A stretch of 64,000 nucleotides of DNA from a virus: IMG/VR virus record IMGVR_UViG_2974521666_000001; one strand, given 5' to 3'. The position numbers and the translations under genes were made by a program. Positions 29,091-61,633 of the stretch are shown here, piece by piece (position 1 is the first letter of the stretch; the number at the start of each line of letters is the position of its first letter). The notes under the pieces were generated by a model. The model worked only from the letters and a program-made list of their open reading frames with translations. It was not told the DNA's origin and did not search any database.

Positions 29091-29442
29091 TGACATTGCG
29101 TACACGGTGGTACTGGAGACACTAGTGGCCTCGCTGGCCCTCAAGCTCGGCGCGGACCCAAACGAGCTGGTACCGAACGTGTTACGCGAAGTTGCAGAAG
29201 CTGAGGGCATGGAAAGCCTAGAGACAGATAGGCTTATCGAACAACGCTGGACTGGCCGGCAAATGCCGCTAGCGGCCCAAAGTGCCCTGTTGCCCCAGGT
29301 GAACGCTGCGGCTACCTGGGCAAACCGTGGGAAACGGGGCCTCAGAAGCCCTGAGACGGCCGAAAAGCCTGACCTTAGGGCCAGACTAGCCGACTACAAA
29401 CAACGCCTGTCTGAGGCTGTCTCTGAGGGCGGCCCTATTTAA
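29077..29442 (+). CDS. hypothetical protein (121 aa)
   Basis: GTG start overlapping the nrdH-like end. Last gene of the left arm. Confidence 0.45.
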   Translation: MSNPDDIAYTVVLETLVASLALKLGADPNELVPNVLREVAEAEGMESLETDRLIEQRWTGRQMPLAAQSALLPQVNAAATWANRGKRGLRSPETAEKPDLRARLADYKQRLSEAVSEGGPI

Positions 29443-29473
29443 AGCCCGTAAGCTGTAGTGTCCCTAGGGCACT

Positions 29474-29535
29474 GAGAGGCCCGTAGCTGCATAGCAGTAC
29501 GCTTGTACTGAGTGTCCGCCAGCTGCGGGCCTCTC
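29474..29535 (+). terminator. left-arm terminator-like long hairpin
   Basis: 29474-29489 pairs with 29520-29535 (GAGAGGCCCGTAGCTG / CAGCTGCGGGCCTCTC): 16 bp including one G-U. Lies 30 nt after the last left-arm gene. The U-tract is weak. Confidence 0.5.
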
Positions 29536-29601
29536 GCATTTCCTATGGTCAGGTTGCCGGCTGATGCCCTGACCAGCTCATATGTCCAGTGATACAGATA
29601 T

Positions 29602-29640
29602 CGGTTTGGTCACGGTTTGGTCAAGATTCGGAAAAGATTC
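29602..29640. repeat. tandem 11-mers (CGGTTTGGTCA x2) followed by AAGATTC x2 at 11-nt spacing
   Basis: 29602-29612 equals 29613-29623 exactly. AAGATTC occurs at 29623-29629 and 29634-29640. Lies in the ORF-free junction. Confidence 0.6.
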
Positions 29641-30194
29641 CCTGGTGGCGTTGCCGAAAAGTAGCAAGTCAGGCCCGTTTCTGGTACTCTTTTGCCTGGG
29701 GCGGCCCATGCCACCCCACCACAACCCAGCCGCCCGCACGGGCGGACGCGAGCACACCCTTGGCGAAACGACTACCAGCTCTTCGCCCGACGCGTGAAAA
29801 AGGCTCCACCCCACTGGGACATAAACGTAAGACCTAGAGGGTCTACACCATTCGTGTAAACGGTGGAGCTGTGACATGGAGCAGCGCTGTGGATCCTGGG
29901 ACGGGCTGTTTAGTGCAACATTAGGCCGAAGGCGCTCTTGCCCAAGAGTACCTAGGGAATTCAACCAGCGATAACGGATCGTCGTGAGACAGTACCGGAG
30001 TCACCCTACGGGGTGCCCGCTGAAGCCGGACACGGTGTGACCTGACTGAACCTAGGGAGTGTAGGGAATTGAGCCCGATGAGGCTGAAATACGTTGTGAC
30101 GGTACACCTTCATGCAGCAAGAGCAGGCACCACCCAAGCCCCTCACGCGGGGCCGGAGCACCTGCCGCTACAGGTCAATGTGTTACAACGTTTT

Positions 30195-30332
30195 CCATCC
30201 ATCCTCGGCACAGCGAGTTCAAACTCGTTGTGCCATTAGGGCACTCAAGCAAACTCAATCAGTTTGAGTGCTCCAATGGCACAATGAGTCCGGTTGAGCC
30301 ACAAAAGTTTACGGACAAAGAGGATGGTAACC
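30195..30332 (+). promoter_or_regulatory. leader of first right-arm gene: anti-motif CCATCCATCCTC plus two mutually exclusive hairpins
   Basis: Hairpin A (30207-30234) and hairpin B (30228-30284) share TTGTGCC (30228-30234). CCATCCTC (30199-30206) is complementary to GAGGATGG (30320-30327) at the start site. Confidence 0.45.
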
Positions 30333-39928: not shown

Positions 39929-39976
39929 ACACAGTGGAGTTCAGGCTCGCAGCCGGCGCGAAAGGCGTAGTGGTAT

Positions 39977-40306
39977 ATGATTATTGAGTCAACACGTGAA
40001 TTCATGATTTCGTGCGATTCGTTTAGGATCGAATGCAACCAATGTGGTGATTGGTCAAATGGCTTGTCCCGCAACGATCTTGATGAGTTCAAAGCCAAGC
40101 ATGAGCACAAGAACGAACGCTTCTATGTCCAATGCAATTCAGAGGGCGAAGATTTGGCCGTAGTGAAAATGACCTACGATCAACAGGCCGTAATCGAAAA
40201 GTTTGAACGAGATTCGGCGCGAAAACGTCAGTGGCGCAAAGAGAATGAGGGCAAATTTGCCACTCATGAGGAAATGATGGAGGCGTACAAAAAGGAATTT
40301 GGTTGA
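39977..40306 (+). CDS. hypothetical protein (109 aa) in low-GC island
   Basis: ATG ORF. Local composition is visibly AT-richer than its surroundings. Confidence 0.5.
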   Translation: MIIESTREFMISCDSFRIECNQCGDWSNGLSRNDLDEFKAKHEHKNERFYVQCNSEGEDLAVVKMTYDQQAVIEKFERDSARKRQWRKENEGKFATHEEMMEAYKKEFG

Positions 40307-42988: not shown

Positions 42989-44151
42989 TCCGGTCCTCTA
43001 GGGCAGCTACCGAATTGGGGATTAAGTAGCCCCACTACCATCCTCTGGTGAAGAAGATTGCACGGCCTCCCCGTACAGCCACGCAATGTCTCCCCAGTTC
43101 GGTAGCTCTAAAGGGTAGAGAGACATCGACACTCAGCACGTATTGAGTAGCCCCTCGGCAAGCTGAAAACGTCTGTCTCTCTACTCCTTAGGGCAGGACC
43201 TGCCCTCCAGTGACCGGGGTACGCACCAGCGAAGAGTCAAGTACAGTCCCTCCAAGCCTGGAAGACCCAGTAGCACAGAGCCTCTGCCCCGGTACACGGG
43301 AATTGTTCTTACACAGTTGAATATACTTCGAGCCTGATCGATAGGCAGTAGCAATGCTGCTGAAAGGCCGGTTGATCCCCGGTCGCCTAGTAATCCTAGG
43401 TAACTCAGGCAATCCAGTACCTTCGCCCATCTGAACGGTGGTGGGACGCAGGCAAGCAGAGCGGGCCAGGCCGATACGGTGAGGCCAGTCGTGTACGCAG
43501 CGACTCAAACGCTATAAGCTGCAAGCCTGATGGTTGGTACATGGGAGGGATACATAGTGCGAGTAGGCATACAAGTGCGGTATCCATGGAGGCCCCAAGG
43601 CGTGGTTGGCGAATCACGTAGGAGCTGAAGAGCACAAGTAGCGGGCACGTGAAAGTGCGATGGCGTGGTGCATTCTGTGGCTCAAAAGGCGACGGAACAC
43701 CTGGGGCAGCACGTCGTCAGATCGTATGGCCTGGTCTCCCTAAGGGACCACCAAAGCGCTCAGGCAAGAGCACTACCATTGGGAGGTAGCAACGGTGTAA
43801 AAGCCGTTTCCGGTTCGACTCCGGCAAAGCAAAAGTCTGTCCCCGCTAGCAACGAAAGTACCCTAATCCCTAGGGCTTACGCCAACTAGGGCACCGGAAG
43901 GCTCGCAAGGCCGACTGGTGTTGCTAGACAAAGTAGTGCAGGTAGGGGGAGGCCACCCCTGACCGAATCGAAACGTCAGCGAGTAGTTCGCTAGTGTAGG
44001 TAGTGGTTCCGCCAATCAAACGGGACCGGGTACGGTGGCTGCAAGTGGGAGCTTGCGGACAAGGAACTAACACATAAGGTTCTGAAAGGCCACTGGGATT
44101 AGGGTCAAGTCTACGCCCTTTCCACCCCTAACAACAAGAGGATGGTAACTC
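42989..44151 (+). ncRNA. 1.16-kb ORF-free, highly base-paired region (candidate large structured RNA or replication origin)
   Basis: No credible ORF or RBS. 16-bp helix 43005-43020/43092-43107, 13-bp helix 43113-43125/43174-43186, many local hairpins, and a T-arm-like CCGG-TTCGACT-CCGG at 43810-43824. Confidence 0.4.
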
Positions 44152-56484: not shown

Positions 56485-57131
56485 TGACCGAAAACCTTAC
56501 CAGCACACTGGAAGAGCGCGTGGCCAAGCTTGAGGTCCAGACCGTCAAGCTCAAGCAGTTTGCTCTAATGTTGCTACGGTACAGGGGAGTGCCGGCTGAA
56601 CACCTTACGCAGGCATGGCGAGAGGCGTTGTATGACAGCTCAGCCCCGGTGCCGGAGAAAGAGCTGGGCCTGATGGGCGACATGACCATCATCGAAGGCG
56701 AAAGTGCCCCATCGGGATTCCACAACCTGTTGGAAGCTACGGCCCAGTTCCATAAGCTTGCAGAGGTTCCCATCGATCAGTGGATTGGCACCGAAAGCGG
56801 CGAGGGCATGATCAGCTACGCCGAGCTGCAGCAGTTGCGTAGTCTGCGTAAGGATTTGCTCCGAGAAGAGGTCAAGGAATACTTCGACGCAGAGGACGGC
56901 AATGACCTAATCGAGATTGTGGACGGCCTGCTGGACATCATCGTGATCGCCTGGGGCACATTGCTTTCCTACGTTGGAGAGGACCGGGCACGGTTGGCGG
57001 CTCACGAGGTGGCACGCTCAAACCTGTCCAAAGTTGATGGGTCCCTAGGGCCTATCGTTCGCCGCACGGACGGCAAGATCCTCAAGCCGGAAGGCTGGAC
57101 CGGGCCGGACATCTTGGGGGCACTGCAGTGA
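56484..57131 (+). CDS. mazG: MazG-like nucleotide pyrophosphohydrolase
   Basis: LREEVKEYFDAEDGNDLIEIVDGLLDIIVIAWG is an EExxE..D metal-binding helix pair. Confidence 0.65.
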   Translation: MTENLTSTLEERVAKLEVQTVKLKQFALMLLRYRGVPAEHLTQAWREALYDSSAPVPEKELGLMGDMTIIEGESAPSGFHNLLEATAQFHKLAEVPIDQWIGTESGEGMISYAELQQLRSLRKDLLREEVKEYFDAEDGNDLIEIVDGLLDIIVIAWGTLLSYVGEDRARLAAHEVARSNLSKVDGSLGPIVRRTDGKILKPEGWTGPDILGALQ

Positions 57132-57535
57132 CACCCCAGGAGAAAATAGTTGAGGCACAACAGCTTTTACGCGAAGCTGCAGCACTTAAAGCTGGCGAAC
57201 CTGTATTGGCCGCAGTGCAACGATACAACGGTGCTCTCGAAGAATACCGTGCCAAGTACGGGAAGACAAAACGAAAGCACTATACCCTCTATCGGTTCCG
57301 TGACGACGAGGACAACCTACTGTACGTTGGTATGACGCGCACCTTCATTAACCGCATGAAAAACCATGCGATGGATAAAGATTGGTGGGAGGACGTATCG
57401 TACATCACTGTGGAGCACTATCCTGACGCTGAATCACTTAGGCAGGCAGAGCTTCACGCGATTGCAACAGAGAATCCGCTACACAACCAAGCAGATCTAC
57501 CAATGCCAGCGAAACCCCTTGTCTCGCATCAGTAG
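57128..57535 (+). CDS. GIY-YIG-like nuclease domain protein
   Basis: YTLYRF-x9-LYVGMT..INRMKNH..E pattern. GTGA coupling. Confidence 0.55.
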   Translation: MTPQEKIVEAQQLLREAAALKAGEPVLAAVQRYNGALEEYRAKYGKTKRKHYTLYRFRDDEDNLLYVGMTRTFINRMKNHAMDKDWWEDVSYITVEHYPDAESLRQAELHAIATENPLHNQADLPMPAKPLVSHQ

Positions 57536-57573
57536 TGGCTACCGGGCGGCGCGACCACTAGATCCAGTGGTTG

Positions 57574-57605
57574 CGTCGTCCCAGGTCACGGGGTAGGCTG
57601 ACCTG
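57574..57605. promoter_or_regulatory. hairpin built from CCCAGGTCA / TGACCTG sites upstream of primase gene
   Basis: CAGGTCA (57582-57588) pairs with TGACCTG (57599-57605). The same site family recurs at 60.5-60.8 kb. Confidence 0.45.
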
Positions 57606-57718
57606 TTCACTGCCCTAACCTCTAACGATATGAGACGCCCTGAGCGTCAACCTCACGGCCGAAAACACAGTCACCTAGCGGATCTAGCGCGACGGCGCGC
57701 GAAAGAGGATGGACAAAC

Positions 57719-60466
57719 TTGAACGCACCCAAGAACATCGGAGCGGCAGCACCATTCGCGAAAGCGGCCTTGGAGTACACCTTGAAGGGGTGGAACGTTC
57801 TGCCGTTGCCTCCCAACAAGAAGAAATCACCACCCAGCAAAGAGGACGACGAACAGGGTCTAGGGTTTACGGGGCGCAACGGCCGACTTGCCACACGCGA
57901 TGACATAGATGCCTGGATACAGGACAAGCGGTGGCGCAAGGGCAACATTGCGGTACGGCCCGGCAACGAGGTCACCAACGACGGTGAGGCCTACGAGGTC
58001 ATAGGGATTGACGTTGACGACTACGACGGGAAGAGCGGCGCGGCTCACCTGGAAGAGCTGATCAAAACCTATGGGCCACTACCAAATACGTGGACAAGCT
58101 CGGCGCGCTCGGACGGCAAGAGCGGCATCCGCTGGTTCCTGACTCCAGTTGGCTACGAGTACATGGGCAAGCCGGTGCTGCCATCCACAGGCCGCGCCAG
58201 CGATAGTATCGAAATCGTACAGAGAGTGCACCGTTACGGCCTGGTGTTCCCCTCGATGCACCCCGACGGCATGCAATACCGTTGGTACGATAGGGGACAG
58301 GCCCCTGACGGCATCCACGTCAACGACCGTATCCCTAGGGTGCAAGAGCTGGCTGTACTGCCGGAGCGCTGGTGGAAGTTCTTGACTCGCAACGGCGTTG
58401 CCAACGCAGGTGGCGCTGTGATCGACATGCAGAGCACCAATGCACAGCTACGCAACTGGCAGAAGAAGCGCTGGGTCGACGGTGAAGACATGTGCGACAT
58501 CATGACCAACGCCCTCAACCGGCACCTGGAAGACGTGGACAGTGCCAGCGACCACCACGAGCCGCTTATCCGTGCGCACTGGAGCCTGTTGCGCCTAGGG
58601 GCGGAAGGACACACAGGCTGGGCCACAGCCTGCCACGTTCTCGAGCAGAGCTGGGCGGATCGTGTAGCGGCAGATCAAGTTCGGAGTGTTGCTGAAACCA
58701 AGTACGAGATTGCCCGGTCCCGCTACGGCACGCTGCGAAAGATCAAGGGCGAGTACGTTCAGTTCAAGCGCAAAGGCCTAGAGTACCTAGAGACTCTGGA
58801 TCCCTGTGAGTGCCGTCGCAACTGGGAGCCTCCCAAGCAACGCAAACCTCCTAAGAGGCCTACGCAATACGAGCGCAACGAGGACGGCAATGCACAGCAC
58901 TTCCTGCATCTTAACCGTGGCAACGTGCGGTTTGTCCCCAACTATCCTGAGTCCCAAGGCGGTAGGTGGATGCTGTTCAGAGACGGCCGTTGGGTGGTGG
59001 ACAACAAGGAAACCCTAGTGCGCCATATGTTCCGACGCGTCAAAACCAGGCAGCAACGGGATGCTCAGCGCCGGTTACAGCTGGCTGCTGCTGCTGTGGC
59101 TGCCGCCGGTGGTACAGCTGCCGCTACGCCTGCGCAGAAGGCAGAGCTGGCAGAGGCCAGAGCGTGGGTGGCGTTCGCGCTTGAGAGCGGCAACAAGGCC
59201 CGTGTGAGCAACAGCTTGGCTCAGGCCCAAAGCTTTCCGGACATTGCACTGTTGTACGAAGAGCTGGACAACAACCCAATGTTGCTTCCAGTGGCCAACG
59301 GGGTGATCAGGTTCCACACCAGGGAAGAGGTGCTGGCTGGAGCCAAACCCTTTGAGTGGGTACAAGATCCAGACGTGATCAAGCACGAGCTGGTCACGCA
59401 GAACACGCATGTGCCGTACATTCCGTTGCGAGAGCAGAAAGACCACCCCGACGCTGAGGTTCGCGAAGGCTACAAACGGTTCTGGGAGTACATGAACAAG
59501 TTCCTGCGCAGCCAGCTTGGTAAAGAGGCGTGGGAGTACACCCTTAAGCTACTAGGGGTTTCGATCCTCGGCGTGAACACCAAAAAGGCTGTGTTCCTAG
59601 TGGGTTTGCCACACACCGGCAAGAGCACCCTGCAGAACATGATGGACCACGCCCTAGGGGACCTATCGATTTGGCGCGAACCAGCCGTATTCGAGGACAC
59701 AACGTTCAAGTCCGCGCTGGCAGAGGCCCTGTCTCGCAGGGTCATGATGGTGGGAGAACTGGGCCAAAAGCATATAGACGCAGGCCTATTCAAGCGCATC
59801 ACAGGTGGAGACGAGGTGTCGTGCCAGCTCAAGAACATCAACAAGCCGGTGACGCTGAAGCCTAGGTGTACCATCATCTCTGGCTGCAACCAGGCCCCAG
59901 AGGTGCCAGACGTGGACGAAGCGACAAAGGAACGCTTTGTGGTCGTACCCTTTAGGCACCAGGTCACCGACGAGGAGCGCGACCCCAACGCCATTGACGA
60001 TCTGCCTGTGCAGTGCCGGTTTGCCATGCTAGCAACGTTGGTAGAGTTCGCCTCTCGTGGTTTGGTGGAGGGCGTTCACATCGTGCCCGATGAGCTGCAG
60101 TTTGAGACTAAGGAATTCGTGTCCAGTCTGAGCGAGCTGTCGGACTTCCTGAAGGAGACAGTGGTCCCGTCGCCACCTAGTGCCTGGAAGAAGTACGCAC
60201 GCAATGACCGTCTGGACGTGGAGAACCCCAAGCCACGGTGGCCCGACGAGCTGTGCCTTGGAGATCGAGACTTGTACAAACAGTACGAAAGATGGTGCAC
60301 ATCCAACGGCATCGCGCCAAGCGAGAAGCTTAGCAAGACTAAGTTCACACGCAAGCTGAAGGACAGTGGTTGGGTGCAGGACGGCAGCTGGACAGCGAAC
60401 AACCAACGGCGATGGCTTGGTTGGAGTTTCGCACCAACCGTTGCAAGGGTGAAGCGGGCCGACTGA
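57719..60466 (+). CDS. bifunctional primase-polymerase / SF3 (D5-like) helicase
   Basis: TTG 6 nt after AAGAGGATGG. Prim-pol motifs GWNVLPLPP and IGIDVDDYD. Walker A GLPHTGKST and Walker B MMVGE. Confidence 0.8.
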   Translation: MNAPKNIGAAAPFAKAALEYTLKGWNVLPLPPNKKKSPPSKEDDEQGLGFTGRNGRLATRDDIDAWIQDKRWRKGNIAVRPGNEVTNDGEAYEVIGIDVDDYDGKSGAAHLEELIKTYGPLPNTWTSSARSDGKSGIRWFLTPVGYEYMGKPVLPSTGRASDSIEIVQRVHRYGLVFPSMHPDGMQYRWYDRGQAPDGIHVNDRIPRVQELAVLPERWWKFLTRNGVANAGGAVIDMQSTNAQLRNWQKKRWVDGEDMCDIMTNALNRHLEDVDSASDHHEPLIRAHWSLLRLGAEGHTGWATACHVLEQSWADRVAADQVRSVAETKYEIARSRYGTLRKIKGEYVQFKRKGLEYLETLDPCECRRNWEPPKQRKPPKRPTQYERNEDGNAQHFLHLNRGNVRFVPNYPESQGGRWMLFRDGRWVVDNKETLVRHMFRRVKTRQQRDAQRRLQLAAAAVAAAGGTAAATPAQKAELAEARAWVAFALESGNKARVSNSLAQAQSFPDIALLYEELDNNPMLLPVANGVIRFHTREEVLAGAKPFEWVQDPDVIKHELVTQNTHVPYIPLREQKDHPDAEVREGYKRFWEYMNKFLRSQLGKEAWEYTLKLLGVSILGVNTKKAVFLVGLPHTGKSTLQNMMDHALGDLSIWREPAVFEDTTFKSALAEALSRRVMMVGELGQKHIDAGLFKRITGGDEVSCQLKNINKPVTLKPRCTIISGCNQAPEVPDVDEATKERFVVVPFRHQVTDEERDPNAIDDLPVQCRFAMLATLVEFASRGLVEGVHIVPDELQFETKEFVSSLSELSDFLKETVVPSPPSAWKKYARNDRLDVENPKPRWPDELCLGDRDLYKQYERWCTSNGIAPSEKLSKTKFTRKLKDSGWVQDGSWTANNQRRWLGWSFAPTVARVKRAD

Positions 60467-60494
60467 AGAGAAGGGTTTCCTCAGGTTGATCAAC

Positions 60495-60830
60495 AGGCTG
60501 ACCTGGGGAAATGGAAGTGATGATGAAAGGTGATGAGTTGCTGCGGGAGACATCGTCCCAGGTCAGGGCGTTTTTCAAGTTTGCTAATCATCAGTCCTCA
60601 CTTTAAATAGAATGATGTAGAGAGGGAAGAAAATACGCAATGTGCTCTAAAGTAATGCACACACATGCATTTCTTTCCGCGCACACATTTTCATGTAGAC
60701 GCTGTGAAGTCAGCTGAAACTGAGGACTGATGATACGGCCCATTTGCACTGGTCAGGGCGTTGCGGCCATCCTCACTTTTCGCGGGCGAGCCCCTGACCT
60801 GGGCAAATAGACAAATCAAACTGAGGATAG
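60495..60830. promoter_or_regulatory. repeat-rich intergenic hub with AT-rich core (candidate origin/operator region)
   Basis: 12-bp site CCCAGGTCAGGG at 60557-60568 (+) and 60792-60803 (-), with partial copies at 60498-60507 (-) and 60751-60758 (+). Inverted 16-mers at 60587-60602 and 60719-60734 flank an AT-rich ~115 bp. Confidence 0.5.
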
Positions 60831-60901
60831 GCTTTAGACAAATGACGAACGACATTGCAACTCTAAAGGTTACAGCCGGCGACTAAAGAGAGGGATCGAA
60901 A

Positions 60902-61633
60902 ATGGATGCGCAGGTAAAGAATAACGCTGTTGACGCCGTAAGTCATGCAGCTGACACGAGTTTTGAAGGAGATCCTCTACATCAGAAGATCTCTAATCCA
61001 GCCGACCGTATTACAGAGGGAGACATCGTGAATGGTCCAGTAGAGCTCAGTGTGGATGACCCTGCATTCCAACAGGTGCTCCGTAGCATCTCGGAATACG
61101 GTTCCCCGTTGCCGCTGTGGGACGACTCAAAAAGCTACGGCCGCAATGTGATTCGTATCGCTCAGCAGCAGTGTGACCAGTGCTGCAAGGGAAACTGCCC
61201 CGGCCACGTTGCAGAGATGACCATGCCGGAAAGGTACGGGGCCAAGTCTTACGACGCTGTGAGTCCGCCGCACTACCAGCGCGGGCCTAGGGTGTTTCTG
61301 AGTGACCATGAGACTGCTGAGTTCTACGACATCCAGTGCATCGATGTGTTCCGGCAAATGCAGGACCCTAGGCTCGCTACAGCTTTCAAGTACATCTGGC
61401 GCGTGGCTTTCGGTGGTAAGGCAGAGCCGTGGGACAGTAGGACACAGGTGGAACGAGATGCTAGGGACATCAAGTCAGCCATCTGGTACCTGGAAGACTA
61501 TGTGGCGAATCCCGTTGAGCCTCTAGCGGATTTGCGCGCGGCGGCGTATGATGCTCTTAAGGCCCGACTGCAGGCAGCAGAGGCCAAGCTGGCAGACAAG
61601 CAGGCGGAAGGCAAAGGGACACAGCAGGACTGA
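60902..61633 (+). CDS. DUF3310-like domain protein
   Basis: SPPHYQ.., IQCIDV, FKYIWRVAFGGK and DIKSAIWYLEDY resemble the DUF3310 signature by eye. Confidence 0.5.
   Translation: MDAQVKNNAVDAVSHAADTSFEGDPLHQKISNPADRITEGDIVNGPVELSVDDPAFQQVLRSISEYGSPLPLWDDSKSYGRNVIRIAQQQCDQCCKGNCPGHVAEMTMPERYGAKSYDAVSPPHYQRGPRVFLSDHETAEFYDIQCIDVFRQMQDPRLATAFKYIWRVAFGGKAEPWDSRTQVERDARDIKSAIWYLEDYVANPVEPLADLRAAAYDALKARLQAAEAKLADKQAEGKGTQQD

Follow-up and report, generated by a model that had tools for sequence, protein, structure and literature searches.

The DNA around the primase-helicase gene gp89 of the Mycobacterium phage Send513 (Cluster R, genus Papyrusvirus; GenBank JF704112) raises the question of where this phage begins to replicate its genome. 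The window analyzed here is a stretch of 64,000 nt covering genome positions 7548-71547; the window coordinates used throughout were obtained by subtracting 7547 from the genome coordinate. Every annotated gene in it is on the + strand except one small open reading frame (ORF), gp42. The replication module encodes a DNA helicase, a Cas4-like nuclease, a RecA-like protein, a sliding clamp, a DnaE-type polymerase, thymidylate synthase, a RuvC-like resolvase, MazG and the primase/polymerase gp89, and it ends at gp89 and a non-coding gap of 435 bp (60467-60901) that separates gp89 from gp91. A preliminary description, made from the sequence alone, had placed a replication origin beside this initiator-type primase-helicase, with operator sites for a regulator of the downstream operon as the alternative. 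Upon comparison with distantly related phages, we found the origin to be the best-supported reading, although the earlier assignment of the iterons, the proposed hairpins and the role of the upstream copies had to be corrected. The gap is probably the replication origin of Send513, with a build similar to that of the staphylococcal pathogenicity islands (SaPIs) and of P4.

The sequence features on which that description rested were real, correct to within one base and far beyond chance. The 12-bp site CCCAGGTCAGGG was present exactly at 60557-60568 (+) and 60792-60803 (-) and with 11 of 12 positions matching at 57580-57591 (+), and partial copies were found at 57598-57605 (-, CAGGTCAG), 60498-60507 (-, 10 of 12) and 60751-60758 (+, GGTCAGGG). 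The length of 12 bp was too short, however, as the copies extend to TCGTCCCAGGTCA(C/G)GG at 57576 and 60553 and to CTGACCTGGGnAAAT at 60498 and 60794. The inverted repeat given as 16 bp was found to reach 18 nt with one mismatch, its arms (60587-60604 and 60717-60734) being separated by 112 nt, and the palindrome AATGCA-CACACA-TGCATT was confirmed. The direct repeat AAACTGAGGA was also present, with its second copy at 60818, although the first starts at 60717 and not at 60716. The region of about 60600-60720, described as the most AT-rich of the window, corresponded to the minimum in guanine-plus-cytosine (GC) content: the lowest 120 bp lie at 60571-60690 (36.7% vs 55.9% overall) and consist of the AT-rich core, the left iterons and the T-run just upstream, while the next-lowest value is 40%, at 39974. 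This second stretch (39974-40093) falls where gp65 begins, with the DNA helicase gene gp66 just downstream.

Additionally, the gap contained a second repeat family that had been missed, with five copies each of TCCTCA/TGAGGA and TCATCA/TGATGA; the window-wide rate predicts about 0.3 copies of TCCTCA. When the 435 bp were dinucleotide-shuffled 300 times, the longest inverted repeat was 15 nt, as compared with 18 nt in the gap; repeated 8-mers numbered 28 (shuffle mean 3.8, maximum 12) and repeated 10-mers 13 (mean 0.4, maximum 4). A count of the 12-bp site over the window with up to two mismatches revealed no enrichment (12 vs 9.3 expected), but the good copies cluster: the 9-mer CCCAGGTCA occurred five times against 0.65 expected, and four of the five flank gp89.

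Cluster R genomes share about 98% identity; the ten compared here are 97.5-100% identical over the gap, and their few differences are uninformative except for two C-to-T changes in motif copy D (C60792 and C60793, in Zenon, Papyrus, MontyDev and Rope). Because such near-identity carries no information on conservation, we compared distant relatives, in which the primase-helicase is 27-64% identical to gp89 and the flanking DNA is beyond alignment. Four sets of homologues were used: annotated phages with a gp89 homologue of about 30% identity; 56 IMG/VR loci from a profile search; seven metagenomic contigs (L076-L082 in our lineage numbering) with proteins of 45-64% identity; and named phages of Fowlmouthvirus, Terapinvirus, Plotvirus, Patiencevirus and Lambovirus. 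Their downstream DNA formed 29 separate groups that could not be aligned to each other. Two Gordonia lineages (L039 and L042; 27% identical, 66% GC) were left out of the argument because their downstream gene is convergent and their single AGGTCAG is a coincidence in coding DNA.

In most lineages with a protein at least about 28% identical to gp89, a non-coding gap of 115-650 bp lies directly 3' of the gene; this placement holds for L015-L019, L076-L082 and about 15 IMG/VR loci. Among the 29 downstream regions, about 15 loci showed a local GC minimum 70-260 nt past the primase stop codon. Each lineage had its own 6-7-mer in 4-9 copies, arranged in tandem (at least two) to the left of the AT-rich core and inverted to the right of it, with repeat cores as different as TCCTCA, GTACTCA, TCAGCAG, GAACAGA, GTCAAT, GGTAACCGAAA, ATTACGG and GTAACAC. 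The equivalents of the left arm were again two tandem 7-mers, for example TTCCTCA, GTACTCA or GAACAGA, each present twice. Longer arrays followed the primase gene in MrMiyagi (L015 4237-4766; at least nine copies of GGTAACCGAAA), Beyoncage (L016 4348-4584; seven copies of ATTACGG with an (AT)n core) and Labelle (L018 4102-4483; seven copies of GTAACAC), and copies of the CGCAGGTCAGAG type accompanied the arrays in MrMiyagi and Labelle. The preliminary description had made its reading depend on conservation in relatives, and the architecture and the motif do recur beside homologous genes in distant lineages. As judged by comparison of these loci, the architecture tracks the gene and not the surrounding DNA, and the same layout with the CAGGTCAG motif after a homologous gene in many distant phages marks the element as a real one of an apparently familiar kind.

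The comparison also separated two components that had been treated as one. The units that act like classical iterons appear to be the two 7-mers of the inverted repeat (ATCATCA GTCCTCA), whereas the 12-bp site, which had been cast as iteron-like, is a separate motif. The iteron arms covary between lineages, an observation that alone is indecisive because a base-paired stem would covary too. A structured element, in which the repeats act by pairing as a non-coding RNA, as an attenuator (A:B / C:D vs B:D) or as single-strand initiation hairpins, would explain this covariation, and the nested B:D pair (12 bp), the 18-bp pair and the central palindrome could fold as one long hairpin, with fold z-scores of -3.0 for the + strand and -5.8 for the - strand. 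The changes at 60792 and 60793 would likewise preserve G-U pairs in a + strand RNA. Nevertheless, the non-transcribed strand folds equally well or better, as plain DNA inverted repeats are expected to do; Rfam 15 gave no match in 57300-61200 (two chance-level matches lay far under their gathering scores), and the scan of the whole window gave none here. We favour protein-binding sites over a stem, on sequence grounds, because the units are tandem within an arm, L080 and L078 keep the 6-mer repeat cores while their arms lose in-register complementarity, both strands fold, and Rfam has no match. The 12-bp motif speaks in the same direction: across lineages it occurred 21 times in the + and 10 times in the - orientation, and in several lineages, such as L023 (+,+,+), all copies point one way and cannot pair. 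The three inverted pairs proposed as hairpins or cruciforms are therefore not conserved, because orientation is mixed and copies in relatives often share one orientation. We consider an element acting by pairing quite improbable.

The 12-bp site proved to be one copy type of a pan-lineage motif, ATTTyCsCAGGTCAGrG, with the extended consensus A-W-W-W-y-C-s-CAGGTCAG-A-G. In an unbiased survey of k-mers, AGGTCAG, CAGGTCAG and GCAGGTCAG ranked at the top among the 29 downstream regions, and CAGGTCAG was the commonest 8-mer, present in 17 of the 29; the within-gene control showed nothing comparable. The density of CAGGTCAG was 1.82/kb in the 600 bp after the stop codon, 0.48/kb in the 400 bp before the start codon, 0.05/kb inside the gene and 0.03/kb elsewhere, an enrichment of about 40-fold past the stop codon and about 10-fold ahead of the start codon. 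Because the motif is kept across lineages with wholly different iterons, its reader is probably either distinct from that of the iterons or some conserved portion of the protein. Copies of the motif enclose the iteron/AT-rich unit and may serve the same replication machinery as accessory sites, for binding or for priming. More tentatively, the two components might form a two-tier origin code, with copies on both sides of the initiator gene, that spans several actinobacteriophage genera (Papyrusvirus, Fowlmouthvirus, Patiencevirus and many uncultured lineages). A conserved region of the primase-helicase would then recognise the motif, for instance as its defined site of priming or loading, while the lineage-specific 7-mers would give specificity. 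Taken as a whole, this proposal is possible but doubtful; a code of this kind is not known from SaPI- or P4-type origins. As a module finder, an exact IMG/VR scan for TCGTCSCAGGTCAGRG was rejected: it returned at least 120 loci, approximately the number calculated by chance for a collection of that size. Among the loci listed, only one, Cluster R itself, had a clear primase homologue nearby; L117 had a weak helicase match (23% identical) with the motif inside that gene. The elements of the locus are collected in Table 1.

Table 1. Elements of the gp89 locus of Send513 (window coordinates).
Element	Position	Strand	Description
Upstream motif pair	57576-57605		TCGTCCCAGGTCACGGGGT (+), then directly AGGCTGACCTG (-)
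gp89	57719-60466	+	Prim-pol fused to superfamily 3 (SF3) helicase, with a modelled C-terminal winged-helix-like domain; presumed initiator; annotated as DNA primase/polymerase
Motif copy A, left module edge	60495-60513	-	AGGCTGACCTGGGGAAATG; minus-strand reading CATTTCCCCAGGTCAGCCT; repeat pairs with 60794-60811
Conserved left block	60538-60586	+	TTGCTG, 5 nt, GACATCGTCCCAGGTCAGGGCG (copy B, 60549-60570), TTTTTCAA, GTTTGCTA
Left iterons	60587-60604	+	ATCATCA GTCCTCA (CTTT); two tandem 7-mers aimed at the AT-rich core
AT-rich core, presumed unwinding element	60605-60716		Includes the palindrome at 60654-60671 and the -10-like TAGAAT at 60608-60613
Right iterons	60717-60734	-	AAAC TGAGGAC TGATGAT; left iterons inverted
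Motif copy C	60747-60762	+	CACTGGTCAGGGCGTT; its 12-mer GGTCAGGGCGTT is identical to 60561-60572 (copy B)
Extra iteron-type copy	60770-60779	+	TCCTCACTTT
Motif copy D, right edge	60791-60811	-	CCCCTGACCTGGGCAAATAGA; minus-strand reading TCTATTTGCCCAGGTCAGGGG
Extra iteron-type copy	60818-60827	-	AAACTGAGGA

Upon comparison of the eight lineages with primases of 45-64% identity, TTGCTG, GTCAG and part of GTTTGCTA were invariant in the left block. Copy B lies 71-93 nt past the stop codon in five lineages including Send513, about 28 nt ahead of the first iteron, and L077, L078 and L081 have CTGGTCAG or TAGTCAG variants at its aligned column. The GGGnAAATG portion of copy A was found again at both module edges in L076-L082, and an equivalent of copy D, the CCTGGGnAAATG element, was present in L076, L077, L081 and L082. 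The closer set also kept the order and spacing of the elements, which run from GGGnAAATG through TTGCTG, GACATCGTCsCAGGTCAGrGC, a T-run, GTTTGCTA and two 7-mers to about 110 nt of AT-rich DNA, the inverted 7-mers, further CAGGTCAG-type copies and CCTGGGnAAATG.

A 31-codon ORF within the gap, gp90 (60511-60606), carries an annotation only in Send513 and JIND1 and probably does not represent a gene: its frame in L076 is shifted relative to the motif, and the ORF in L082 ends after four codons. The gap appears truly non-coding because this frame is not kept in relatives. Both Cluster R substitutions in gp90 are synonymous, and its ATG belongs to a conserved DNA element, GGGGAAATG. At the other end of the gap, the following gene is annotated in Candle and Zenon from an ATG equivalent to 60842, a frame that in Send513 is closed by the TAA at 60884-60886, which places the gp91 start at 60902; in Nilo, Weiss13, Papyrus and others, the sequence is unrelated to that of Send513 from about 60885 on.

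Another possible role of the gap is that of a transcription boundary, in which a primase-operon terminator is followed by a gp91-gp98 promoter in the AT-rich core, the iterons are operators of a lineage-specific regulator and CAGGTCAG is a common regulatory site. Of the rivals to an origin, it is the main one. It is supported by the T-run after copy B, which gave a weak terminator-like score; in Send513, a 5-bp stem followed by TTTTT is present after gp89. However, terminator-like sites occurred at chance level, and a conserved intrinsic terminator was not found after gp89 in the lineages compared, as the small hairpin beside the T-run (CGTCC/GGGCG) is disrupted in relatives: L080 and others lack its stem (CCC to CGC), and L079 and L082 lack the T-run. 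Similarly, about half of the close lineages have a -10-like box (TAGAAT or TATATT) immediately to the right of the left repeats, with a TTGCTA-like hexamer upstream, but the two are 21-23 nt apart, too long for one promoter, and a consensus scan revealed no sigma-70-type promoter. Motif copies upstream of the primase gene are what a promoter or operator would predict, whereas the occurrence of the motif in both orientations is not, and up to 7-9 repeat copies in opposed arrays around an AT-rich core resemble an origin rather than an operator. Gumball and Labelle, whose genomes end with the primase gene, have the module too. The operator alternative has thus become less likely; we judge a transcription boundary unlikely as the explanation of the locus, although it may be partly true alongside an origin, because promoters inside origins are common.

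The preliminary description had also reported that the sites bracket the primase gene. The upstream pair of Send513 lies in a segment (57536-57641) of DNA that is unique to this phage, beside an HNH endonuclease gene, while the Cluster R relatives have an inverted pair of their own with an AGGTCAG core at the equivalent upstream place. Bracketing consequently stands as a family trait only, because the relatives bear their own upstream CAGGTCAG-type copies; it does not extend to the particular pair of Send513. HNH endonuclease insertions vary upstream of the primase gene (57128-57641; L012-L014, L002): the gene is before 57642 in Send513 (gp88), after the equivalent of 57669 in Weiss13, Papyrus and others, and missing there in Candle and Rope. 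This region is a hot spot of homing-endonuclease traffic, and such insertions at differing points, together with the Send513-only upstream pair, are what would be expected if the repeats were left behind or targeted by mobile DNA, either homing HNH endonucleases or a small inverted-repeat element, and served neither replication nor expression. We found this explanation very hard to credit: the mobile-DNA reading is unlikely because the downstream module occurs in all lineages examined, with or without an HNH gene, and its internal order and spacing are kept at 45-64% protein identity, and the module has no flanking duplication or transposase. A box, ACGGCCGAAAA, was also observed at 57655-57665; it lies 51-71 nt ahead of the primase start in Send513, L076-L080 and L082, whose primases are 48-64% identical.

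To a putative origin of this build belongs an initiator, and gp89 is a fitting candidate. Its Pfam domains are Prim-Pol (PF09250) at residues 17-193, D5_N at 412-536 and Pox_D5 at 850-897; the SF3 P-loop (GKST) is present, and the helicase core matched the SaPI5 primase-helicase (7ola; phmmer, 4.7e-8). AlphaFold2 models of the C-terminus showed a helix-helix-beta-hairpin topology with a predicted local distance difference test score of 82-83. The best structural matches of these models included the RFX winged helix (1dp7; probability 0.90-1.00) and the C-terminus of the African swine fever virus PrimPol, all with E values of at least 0.01, while the origin-binding domain of P4 (1ka8) was at rank 17 with a probability of 0.66 and an E value of 0.01 or worse. 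A profile of the C-termini of the gp89 family gave a weak match to the RFX winged helix (E 0.06-0.26). As a protein query, the C-terminal 170 residues alone returned zero matches, and the full-length protein succeeded. Comparison of winged-helix residues with iteron sequences gave a faint pattern only; a residue-level correlation was not established and we make no claim for it.

Based on these features, we propose that gp89, with its putative C-terminal winged helix, would bind the short repeats on either side of the AT-rich core, and that gp89 hexamers would assemble on each side. The core, of about 110 bp, would then be melted by gp89, which would load itself as the helicase and prime DNA synthesis with its prim-pol domain; the primers might be extended by the DnaE-type polymerase and the sliding clamp of the phage, both encoded upstream. 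The upstream motif copies could couple the origin to gp89 expression by autoregulation, or they could resemble the second cis site of P4, crr. In contrast with the repeats, their statistics and their conservation, which are observed, the binding by gp89, the assignment of its domains to the repeats, the melting and all later steps are inferred.

Several points weigh against an origin in this gap. The winged-helix matches of gp89 are weak (E 0.01 or worse). The motif is absent in Gumball/L030, L040, L049 and L055, although iteron modules are present there. In the AT-rich core, the -10-like box (TAGAAT here, TATATT in three relatives) indicates that part of the conservation could be transcriptional because the downstream genes need a promoter. 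With all genes sharing one strand, the GC skew of the window rises monotonically and gives no independent origin signal. Literature searches found no experimental origin data for any phage of this group; they turned up no lytic-phage origin mapped by experiment in these clusters, no report of any kind for Clusters R and U and their relatives, and nothing on Cluster R origins or on the motif. Finally, the window has two larger non-coding gaps, at 29443-30323 and 42989-44151, the first of which may be an alternative origin site, either additional or the true one. The second is largely accounted for by a GOLLD RNA.

This GOLLD RNA (Rfam RF02032), at 43658-44118 (+), scores 180.4 bits, above the gathering score of 150 (E 4.4e-49), and covers model positions 1-416, full-length; it falls inside the 1163-bp gap between gp68 and the Cas4-like gp69 and is missing from the GenBank annotation. 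The other gap, of 880 bp, follows the lysis cassette, and its sole ORF is the doubtful minus-strand gp42. It contains inverted repeats of 26 nt (30223-30248 / 30264-30289) and 16 nt (29474-29489 / 29520-29535), a tandem CGGTTTGGTCA (two copies) and TAGGGAATTCAACC (three copies), and a box similar to that upstream of gp89, CTGAGACGGCCGAAAA, lies just before it at 29350-29365. It could be an early promoter region or a second candidate cis-acting site.

The analysis thus provides a precise origin candidate of 435 bp with named sub-elements, together with a rule that seems valid in many genera, in which opposed short repeats surround the GC minimum immediately 3' of a prim-pol/helicase gene; the conserved motif may be used for finding such modules. 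If confirmed, gp89 and the gap would give mycobacterial and Gordonia vectors a compact cassette of initiator plus origin, and the SaPI-type origin with a self-loading helicase would extend from Firmicute satellites to lytic actinobacteriophages.

We compared the proposed origin with known systems. In Cluster O mycobacteriophages, an AT-rich stretch with complex repeats has been proposed as the origin on bioinformatic grounds (PMC4351075). That proposal is likewise a prediction, and it differs from the Send513 module in location, repeats and sequence and does not follow the primase gene. For simian virus 40 large T antigen and papillomavirus E1, inverted initiator sites flank an AT-rich or easily melted segment, on which two SF3 helicase hexamers assemble. 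The SF3 P-loop core is found in gp89 too. The analogy is one of mechanism only; neither the DNA-binding domains nor the sequences of the sites are related to those of the gp89 system.

The alpha protein of P4 combines a primase, an SF3 helicase and a C-terminal DNA-binding domain in one polypeptide, as gp89 does with its modelled winged helix. Pox_D5 at the gp89 C-terminus is a further likeness, and a 38%-identical relative of gp89 (P0015) is labelled a P4-family primase by its Joint Genome Institute source; in a plasmid collection, only distant P4-family primases were found, on Streptomyces plasmids, none with a characterised origin. In P4, octamer iterons are present in ori and in crr, 4.5 kb apart. 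The gp89-type phages similarly have repeated sites on both sides of the initiator gene, with CAGGTCAG-type copies at 1.82/kb after the stop and 0.48/kb before the start across lineages, but the upstream copies of Send513 are just two and lie in non-conserved DNA. Further differences are the P4 iteron itself, TGTTCACC, the alpha primase, which is of the DnaG/TOPRIM type where gp89 has Prim-Pol (PF09250), and the weak structural similarity between the gp89 C-terminus and the P4 domain 1ka8.

In SaPIs, the origin consists of 6-12 short iterons immediately 3' of rep; two or more of them lie on either side of an AT-rich centre, in opposed directions (PMC9371898). The helicase that binds them, through its C-terminal winged helix, is self-loading and in SaPI5 is fused to a primase (PMC9371898). 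Send513 differs in that it is a lytic tailed phage of an actinobacterial host and not a satellite island, its primase part is of the archaeo-eukaryotic prim-pol type, and its origin is a prediction from sequence. The second, CAGGTCAG-type motif, which is shared across lineages and also lies upstream of the gene, is absent from the SaPI description (PMC9371898). The overall build is otherwise very similar to that of SaPIs and of the wider family of phage-inducible chromosomal islands: the module starts right after the gp89 stop codon (60466), as the SaPI origin lies 3' of the initiator helicase gene, and the helicase cores of gp89 and the SaPI5 protein match in sequence. ATCATCA GTCCTCA (60587-60600) faces TGAGGAC TGATGAT (60721-60734) across the AT-rich core, where SaPIs have repeats of 5-7 bp, and in the gp89-type phages, too, the sequence of the repeat is specific to the lineage.

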